This document shows, piece after piece, positions 47,498 through 48,428 of a stretch of DNA of 64,000 nt (the stretch's first letter is position 1; the number at the start of each line of letters is the position of its first letter). Below the pieces are notes generated by a model. The model had not been told where the DNA came from, searched no databases, and was given only the letters and a program-made list of their open reading frames with translations. The stretch is taken from NCBI GenBank assembly GCA_044892525.1, contig CM097885.1, positions 24,554,001 to 24,618,000 on the forward strand. Direction: 5' to 3'. This stretch comes from Schmidtea polychroa (lineage: Eukaryota). The position numbers were made by a program, and so were the translations under genes.

Positions 47498-48428
47498 TGA
47501 TTAAGTCCAAGAACACTTTTATTATCCGCCTCTACAGGGCCGCGTGGATCAGTTTTGAATAATACCAGTTTGTCCATTTCAATATCATAAGATAATGCCA
47601 TTATTGAACAACCTAATGGTCGCCTCTCAGCCGATTGGGAATAGAGTTCATCAATATCCGCCATAGAAGAACATATTATATCACAAGGCATTTTATGTCC
47701 AATTTTAGATTTAAATCGAGCTGCTTCCATTTGTGCACGACATACTTGAGATCGACAATCAGGGATCATACCAATCATAACACCTCCAGTACTTTCAGTA
47801 ATATTAAACAATCTCGTAGCTGAACTCGTCTCAATCATTTTATCGGGAACTTTTCCTTTTGCATATCTATCGATTTCATTAAGCCAATTTTTAACATTGT
47901 TAAACGAATCATGATCGGTAACATCAAACATAACAATAATTCCATGAGCTCCTCTGTAATAAGACGAGGTTATAGTTCTAAATCTTGCTTGATCTGCTGT
48001 ATCCCATATTCGCAATTTCATTGTATCACAAGTTTCAGTATAAAAATCATCTGCAAGTCTGAGTAATAAACAAGATTTTCCCACACCAGAATCTCCAATT
48101 AATAGGAACTTGACTAAATAATCACACTCTGGATTCATTTCTAGATTCATTTCGAATAACCGATATACCAAAAATTCCACAAAGAACACTTCCAGAATTC
48201 TATCGATTCAAAAAAACCACAGGTTTAAACAATTCTACCAAAATTAATAAGTTCTACAAAACATTTCATCAAAAACTTACAATTTAGCAATAAAAAACCT
48301 ACTTCTCGCGTCTGTGTGCGCACACCAACAAGAATCGGTCTAACCAGACCGCGCACACAGACGCGATAGAAAAGAAGCATGCAACAAACTGCCAGTCAGA
48401 GGCAATCCCCCTCTGACTGGTCGAAACA
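47498..48428 (-). repeat. 3' LTR (931 bp, TGTTTCGA...TTAATCA); partial 5' LTR copy at 51625-52028
   Basis: TG...CA ends, PPT upstream, AATAAA ~25 bp from the end. 48002-48406 matches 51625-52028 with 5 differences counted by eye. Confidence 0.82.
47535..48150 (-). pseudogene. Chimeric ORF: Rab1 N-terminal fragment fused in frame to a proteasome alpha subunit (PSMA6-like) fragment
   Basis: [27 protein letters not shown]...[17 protein letters not shown]...EIDRYA (Rab1), then KVPDK...[14 protein letters not shown]...[12 protein letters not shown]...KTDP (PSMA6-like). Confidence 0.88.

Follow-up and report, generated by a model that had tools for sequence, protein, structure and literature searches.

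Captured Rab1 and PSMA6 coding fragments in the LTR of a planarian BEL/Pao retrotransposon family, in a frame that runs through the primer site and ubiquitin towards Gag

The window analysed here, a 64,000-nucleotide stretch of the Schmidtea polychroa genome (contig CM097885.1, positions 24,554,001 to 24,618,000 of the forward strand), carries at 47498..48428 on its minus strand the 3' LTR of a broken, pol-less and non-autonomous BEL/Pao retrotransposon. The LTR is 931 bp long with TG...CA termini. It starts with TGTT at 48428 directly after a polypurine tract (48429..48442, minus strand), a sequence also found ahead of other 3' LTRs (L029), and ends in CA at 47498, 26 bases past the start of an AATAAA poly(A)-like signal (47518..47523, minus strand) that is read in frame as Asn-Lys. 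These ends, which a preliminary description of the locus had marked by PPT/TGTT on one side and AATAAA...CA on the other, were confirmed in the sequence, and identical ends occur at 29 other loci. Two element-specific hairpins lie at the LTR start (48307..48419, minus strand; fold z = −6.5, matched by 0 of 200 shuffles in the folding test), the second of which is a signature of the family. Upstream of the start codon there is a short GT...AG intron-like stretch (48254..48302, minus strand; acceptor placed by alignment) that is precisely missing in the copies L011, L012 and L042, indicating that the LTR RNA gets spliced; the position of the transcript start is not fixed thereby.

The body of the LTR joins fragments of two host genes, all on the minus strand. 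Rab1 codons 1–35 (48034..48138) retain the host start codon and the P-loop, are identical to the host gene (L059) at 95 of 105 bases, and follow a degraded remnant of the Rab1 5' UTR, which is easier to recognize in L023, L027 and L030. Rab1 codons 54–111 follow (47857..48030; 160 of 174 bases identical to host) and end ahead of the G4 and G5 motifs, a 51-nt in-frame deletion between the two blocks having removed switch I. Next come PSMA6 codons 53–156 (47545..47856), of which codons 54–156 are identical to the host gene (L066) at 282 of 309 bases. The stop-free frame spans 47353–48207, and from the Rab1 ATG (48138) to the LTR end it comprises 213 codons and two bases with no stop of its own; Pfam recognizes Ras (E 1.5e-26) and then Proteasome (E 5e-18). 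The intronless, stop-free Rab1-PSMA6 frame of the preliminary description is thus borne out, as are its details for this copy: P-loop kept, switch I deleted in frame, DTADQA instead of DTAGQE, and G4 and G5 missing. Lacking switch I, the G3 glycine, G4 and G5, and holding only residues 53–156 of the 246 of PSMA6, the frame specifies neither a complete Rab GTPase nor a complete proteasome alpha subunit.

The 5' LTR of the same element is a remnant of 404 bases (51625..52028, minus strand), cut at both ends and 98.8% identical to the start of the 3' LTR. The earlier statement that Rab1 recurs in the 5' LTR at ~99% identity therefore stands for these 404 bases, whereas the PSMA6 part is gone. The PSMA6 part and the primer site were lost in a deletion that fuses ubiquitin, out of frame, to Rab1 codon ~45 and whose junction has one occurrence in the whole genome (exact-pattern search). 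In place of its first ~24 bases this LTR has the terminal part of a different repeat, which occurs at two further places, and an alternative start for the LTR was rejected on that ground; the window copy has no target duplication. The internal region, also on the minus strand, begins with two ubiquitin units that each end in Gly-Gly (51200..51628; the first is 5'-truncated; Pfam ubiquitin E 1.7e-54), followed by Gag (DUF1759), a Cys/His-rich region and a protease-like stretch (48471..51199) in three frames. This latter part is ~95% identical to the internal regions of L063–L065. Inspection of its ORFs and Pfam matches found no reverse transcriptase or integrase in the internal region, and the window copy is a dead-end member of its family.

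Other features of the window were recorded alongside. A long single-frame ORF with kinase and PH_3 domains, presumably PDK1-like, lies at 13251–14786 (plus strand), and another with an MBOAT acyltransferase domain at 15133–16590 (plus strand). On the minus strand, an LTR element with 237-bp repeats that are 99% identical (53925–58504) encodes, in several frames, zinc knuckle, protease, reverse transcriptase, RNase H and integrase in Gypsy order, and two hAT-type transposase ORFs (DUF4371, hAT dimerisation) are located at 34636–37296 and 45082–46952. An inverted repeat of ~500 bp (5421–5937 and 60620–61126; 84–90% complementary, 55 kb apart) probably represents two copies of a dispersed repeat. 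At 6400–12791 (minus strand), ORFs with TRAF zinc fingers and MATH, and with BIR and RING, stand beside long coiled-coil-like ORFs, a domain set that recalls the accessory domains described for Burro/GYPSM1 elements (PMC6431247).

Both donors were located in the same genome, Rab1 at L059 and PSMA6 at L066, and the host loci include parts of the homologues that are absent from the LTR. At the DNA level the captured pieces are 89–92% identical to these donors (the host Rab1 comparison covering codons 1–111), while a second host Rab1 paralogue matches the LTR at just 75–78%; in the databases the PSMA6 piece is closest to flatworm PSMA6 proteins. The LTR lacks three introns of Rab1 and one of PSMA6 at the exact splice points, a fourth Rab1 intron falls within the deleted switch I stretch, and some copies retain ~40 bases of the Rab1 5' UTR. 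Since the donor introns are exactly removed and 5' UTR is retained, the source was spliced mRNA, in agreement with the capture from mRNA proposed earlier. At the Rab1/PSMA6 junction there is, judged by eye, an A-rich likeness of ~10 bases. Elsewhere in the genome a proteasome alpha gene is present twice, 11.7 kb apart and with identical translation of the one exon compared (L033 and L034; G000:C4:77787189 and 77798920).

When the genome was searched with the window LTR at the DNA level, the 40 scored candidates, from a total of 2467, yielded 43 matches, and the 30 that were fetched span most of the LTR. Among these, 25 of the 28 scorable loci (L002–L029) are solo LTRs with target duplications of 5–6 bp, and the remaining three flank internal regions; about half of the duplications lie in simple ATT repeats and are less telling for that reason, and L028 and L029 share one as a pair. 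Exact patterns gave 131 genome occurrences of the Rab1/PSMA6 junction, mostly in solo LTRs, 218 of the junction between LTR end and primer site, and 1688 of the second (signature) hairpin stem, of which some LTRs have two; reversed control patterns had 0 matches in the genome. Hence the captured fragments have indeed been replicated as part of the LTR. In one place a LIM-Rab1-PSMA6 LTR piece is arranged in tandem with a 1788-bp period (L104–L107, G000:C1:33.163–33.169 Mb).

Pol-bearing members (L134 and L129) encode reverse transcriptase, Peptidase_A17 and DUF5641 (Pfam), and the family was assigned to BEL/Pao because DUF1759 Gag, reverse transcriptase, Peptidase_A17 and DUF5641 are all present. 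Its direct TG...CA repeats, purine tract, tRNA primer site and short target duplication are likewise hallmarks of this group, in which the duplication is typically 5 bp. The primer site of the family corresponds to a tRNA-Met array, the search pattern containing one mismatch; that tandem array (L222, G000:C1:79.33 Mb onward) has a 454-bp period, and the pattern has 1227 matches genome-wide. In the internal 3' regions of pol-less members (L063:4846–6000, L132 and L139), pol is replaced by long open stretches, many of them acidic, which end in a common short module before the purine tract.

In intact members the reading frame begins in the 5' LTR, crosses the tRNA-Met primer site and ubiquitin, and enters Gag or Gag-Pol. 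As a single frame from the LTR to the end of Gag-protease it measures 1153 codons in L128, L130 and L136, whose LTRs are 99.9% identical, 1395 codons in L131 and 1349 in L132, all five being young elements, and the pol-bearing L129, L134 and L135 begin with the identical arrangement. These elements come from 23 ten-kilobase regions, two of which had no primer-site match, the others beyond L128–L132 and L134–L136 being interrupted. In two full-length members with a Rab1-PSMA6 LTR (L063 and L065) the 5' LTR frame reaches ubiquitin, over 406 and 446 codons respectively, and breaks further on, before or in Gag; L064 is broken within the LTR. The first 30 primer-site loci by position were reduced to 27 by removal of three tandem duplicates, and at 22 of the 27 the Gag frame is open for at least 100 codons upstream of the primer site, compared with 0 of 27 for either of the other two frames. 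The AATAAA lies in the leader frame at 27 of the 28 primer-site loci that have the signal. For Rab1-PSMA6 copies with scorable start and end, the start, the junction and the LTR end are all in frame in 44 of 61, so that the fragments recur, mostly with their frame, in LTRs other than those of the window.

Between primer site and ubiquitin lies an AT-rich linker, which is in frame at 20 of 24 scorable loci and occurs in nine lengths, all divisible by three. It contains 2 stops in 2031 codons, versus 142 and 202 in the other frames, counts that come from related loci rather than independent draws. Gly-Gly stands ahead of Gag in 23 of 24 scorable loci, and the tail of the Gag-proximal ubiquitin reads LAGG or LCGG, as against LRGG in host ubiquitin. 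Downstream of the primer site, 42 bases past the LTR end, 29 of 30 loci have a donor-like GTA. An intron at this site was rejected: no GT...AG joint is listed for it, conservation follows the frame of the unspliced RNA, and removal of such an intron would put Gag of the two-ubiquitin subfamily out of frame. No RNA dataset is listed as containing the window element. Contigs from five runs presumed to be RNA and from one of unassigned kind were compared with L063 and L128. Those of X1 and X6 cover the element-specific hairpin region and Gag, one X6 contig spans the LTR end and primer site, and the X7, X8 and X9 contigs are mainly host-gene. As these contigs give neither start nor strand and have no silent control, they carry no weight in the interpretation below.

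We propose, with a probability of roughly 0.75, that in better-preserved members the Rab1 and PSMA6 pieces open a frame that leads via the primer site into ubiquitin-Gag, and that they form a likely disposable leader cut off by host deubiquitinases. The open frame of the LTR is explained by this proposal because it would be the front end of a ubiquitin-Gag polyprotein; translation, cleavage after Gly-Gly and the start site are predicted from sequence. Transcription would start within the first ~130–290 bases of the LTR and the R region would be unusually long, because translation from inside the LTR needs a start upstream of the cargo. Reverse transcriptase copying this long end could switch at short microhomologies onto abundant host mRNAs that are packaged together with the element, and then back. 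Captures that keep the frame would survive, as the Gly-Gly cut would yield an identical Gag N-terminus whatever lies ahead of it, and captures that close the frame would lose Gag and die out. By analogy with HIV-1, the 5' LTR poly(A) signal may be silenced by the invariant donor-like site 42 bases past the LTR end. In L128, L131 and their relatives, Gag is predicted to begin with Ser in members of the two-ubiquitin subfamily and with Asn in those of the one-ubiquitin subfamily. Under the N-end rule an N-terminal Asn marks a protein for degradation, and the cut after Gly-Gly might also set the half-life of Gag. Leader length is kept at about 180–300 codons, and a disposable leader leaves such avoidance of deletions unexplained.

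The same fragments might be untranslated passengers whose frames are open merely because the captures are recent, given that host coding sequence is open from the outset and that many copies do have stops or frameshifts. Passengers of this kind leave unexplained why the linker, which is not of host origin, is essentially stop-free with lengths divisible by three, why the AATAAA and the LTR end keep a fixed frame, and why so many independent junctions are in frame, and we consider this account extremely improbable.

A translated leader upstream of ubiquitin-Gag may be examined further through the pattern of substitutions. The 100 loci fetched (30 best matches, the first 30 junction matches and 40 more of 100 listed) were reduced to 82 copies by removing 13 duplicates and collapsing five pairs at ≥99% identity; the exact junction pattern had supplied 70 of the 100 and similarity to the window 30, a choice biased towards copies in good preservation. 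Scored against host codons, alleles seen once comprise 230 missense, 64 silent and 14 stop changes, near the neutral expectation (missense/silent 3.6, stops 6%). Alleles in two copies comprise 57 missense, 10 silent and 4 stop changes, the four stops being read as recurrent mutation, and those in at least three copies comprise 92 missense, 33 silent and 0 stop changes. Stops are therefore depleted among shared variants (0 of 125 versus 14 of 308 singletons, p=0.013), with no such shift in missense/silent (p=0.31). In-frame indels account for 5 of 5 shared and 14 of 24 private cases, a difference that is not significant (p=0.13). Pairwise dN/dS between the window copy and five elements that match it in cargo and Gag is 0.80 for the cargo and 0.27 for Gag, with silent divergences of 0.068 and 0.081 respectively; shared ubiquitin and Gag variants give 0.12–0.42 (8–15 copies), and the window compared with host Rab1 gives 0.54 on 23 changes. 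The cargo has diverged from host by a median of 7.2% (range 3.3–12.1%, 80 copies), about the silent-site rate of Gag. Thus, selection acts on the openness of the frame and hardly on its amino acids, although a cargo dN/dS slightly under 1 may reflect weak protein constraint. Selection on the frame had been argued in the preliminary description from the two in-frame junctions, which are weak evidence when taken alone (1 in 9 by chance); the conclusion is carried by the family as a whole.

The cargo itself is exchangeable. Sister LTRs with a common hairpin, primer site and Gag type carry different cargo in the same frame, with Pfam matches to EAP30 (ESCRT-II), DSPc phosphatase, Adaptin_N, TCP-1 (chaperonin), ClpP, myotubularin and LIM, often joined to PSMA6 or Rab1. 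At the gene level we take some of these, by motif, to be DUSP12, COPG, CCT3 and MsrB. No Pfam match over the cut-off was found for 3 of 10 leaders in the first set and 7 of 9 further leaders. The lesions of the window copy are traits of a subfamily and not of the family, the P-loop being present in 46, switch I in 24 and DTAGQE in 33 of the 82 copies, where absences include stretches replaced by other cargo. The 51-nt switch I deletion is common to 40 of the 82. The copies form a graded series, from near-host Rab1 1–111 (L155) through loss of switch I to a further 51-nt loss of the P-loop, and in later steps the front is replaced by LIM pieces and additions appear at the back.

Selection for a decoy protein had also been suggested, in which case the released Rab1-PSMA6(-ubiquitin) chimera would aid the element as a functional decoy or in a dominant-negative manner. 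One such molecule would be made for every Gag, many subfamilies contain PSMA6 pieces, L155 and L156 hold Rab1 1–111 almost unchanged, and Burro elements of planarians are described as carrying apoptosis and ubiquitin regulators (PMC6431247), all of which would suit such a role. The near-neutral missense rate, the loss of switch I, P-loop and DTAGQE in successful, multi-copy subfamilies and the equal success of unrelated cargo speak against it. In a Rab1 fragment without G4 and G5, moreover, half of the GTPase fold is missing, which further counts against a decoy. We therefore regard a selected function of the chimeric protein as quite improbable.

The frequent swapping of cargo among subfamilies that share hairpin, primer site and Gag could alternatively mean that host-like LTR DNA is selected as camouflage against piRNAs or simply as fast-changing sequence, with the open frame as its price, a possibility that is compatible with a disposable leader. 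The identified donors are conserved housekeeping genes, as camouflage would favour, and LTR elements are reported to be strong targets of PIWI in planarians (PMC8532177). However, the cargo is not kept close to host, as its median divergence and Gag-like silent divergence attest, abundant mRNAs would be captured most often even if they brought no benefit, and the hairpins and Gag stay available as element-specific targets. Camouflage as the selected property is rather unlikely, and we retain the disposable leader of a ubiquitin-Gag polyprotein as the preferred interpretation.

More distant relatives were sought with the Gag-protease protein, for which 7997 scored candidates gave 93 matches. 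The six top relatives have Gag identities of 32–37%; in five of them Pfam recognizes ubiquitin ahead of Gag-Pol, the sixth has a tail resembling ubiquitin, and ubiquitin is present in just these 6 of the 93. Gly-Gly lies directly ahead of Gag in all six. The primer-site peptide is GSRAW in P0241 and P0245 and GSRAC in P0246, and judging only by this peptide the leaders of the distant relatives would also lie in LTRs. The P0241 leader matches DnaJA1 (E 6e-5) and P0243 starts with an HSP90 piece; interpreting the P0246 leader as protease-like was not supported. In a FastTree phylogeny of Gag-protease, from which L128 was left out for short coverage, the ubiquitin-bearing elements fall on one side of a branch with a weak support of 77, and eight of the nine on one with support 92. 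On sequence grounds, ubiquitin-Gag is a lineage trait, because it is shared by six distant elements, one of which has it behind a DnaJ fragment.

Yeast Ty1, a Copia-type element whose LTR overlap is short, resembles the present family in having a tRNA-Met primer site within the Gag frame (PMC4974528), but has no captured host cargo and no ubiquitin. The elements of a BEL/Pao survey (de la Chaux and Wagner 2011, PMC3118150) are alike in their TG...CA ends, 5-bp duplications, tRNA primer site, DUF1759 Gag and pol domains. The family described here differs from them, as presented in the main text of that survey, by its coding leader in the LTR, its in-frame primer site and its ubiquitin before Gag, and the word ubiquitin is absent from that main text (PMC3118150). 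LTR-mediated retroposition (Tan et al. 2016, PMC5131818, which cites maize Bs1) also generates intron-less partial mRNAs and chimeras of multiple donors, and for animal retrocopies of this kind short microhomology at junctions and further rounds of retroposition are described (PMC5131818). Those retrocopies, as portrayed there, replace parts of internal ORFs and have low copy numbers (one to five for Bs1). The cargo described here, by contrast, sits inside both LTRs and solo LTRs, upstream of an intact Gag, with more than 100 copies for the Rab1/PSMA6 junction alone, pol-bearing elements as well, and repeated exchange.

Cytopathic pestiviruses similarly contain captured ubiquitin within a polyprotein, and mosaic host inserts (PMC8310069, PMC13517609), their ubiquitin being cut by cellular ubiquitin hydrolases to give a clean N-terminus for the next protein (PMC8310069). 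In the accounts given there these insertions belong to an RNA virus, are sporadic and are called an evolutionary dead end, whereas here ubiquitin is a fixed trait of the lineage and the cut is predicted. The giant Gypsy elements named Burro (PMC6431247) are also planarian LTR elements with host-derived domains, which, as described there, are whole conserved domains in internal ORFs rather than fragments in the LTR. Neither host mosaics inside BEL/Pao LTRs nor ubiquitin-Gag was found in the search listings, abstract openings and paper passages surveyed. Repbase Reports has planarian BEL entries, and repeat libraries in supplements may already contain the family.

LTRs ordinarily serve in regulation, and the capture of genes is as a rule an infrequent, crippling event of the internal region. 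In this family, translation from within the LTR and a ubiquitin cut appear to make capture nearly free, giving continuous in-frame exon shuffling, and a graded record of capture intermediates has been retained. In this family selection on the openness of a frame can be told apart from selection on a protein, and the question of why elements capture host genes becomes testable in animals whose PIWI system has been studied well. In practice the copies raise the apparent size of gene families (80 proteasome alpha N-terminal matches), and reads or RNAi triggers for Rab1 and PSMA6 can cross-map with them. More tentatively, and as a possibility that we hold to be rather doubtful, this could be an old undescribed BEL/Pao lineage in which the LTR is a swappable coding cassette, its turnover is adaptive through escape from piRNAs, and about a thousand solo LTRs seed chimeric mini-genes. 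If so, each solo LTR would be a ready-made chimeric mini-gene, equipped with hairpins, an intron, a start codon and a poly(A) signal.
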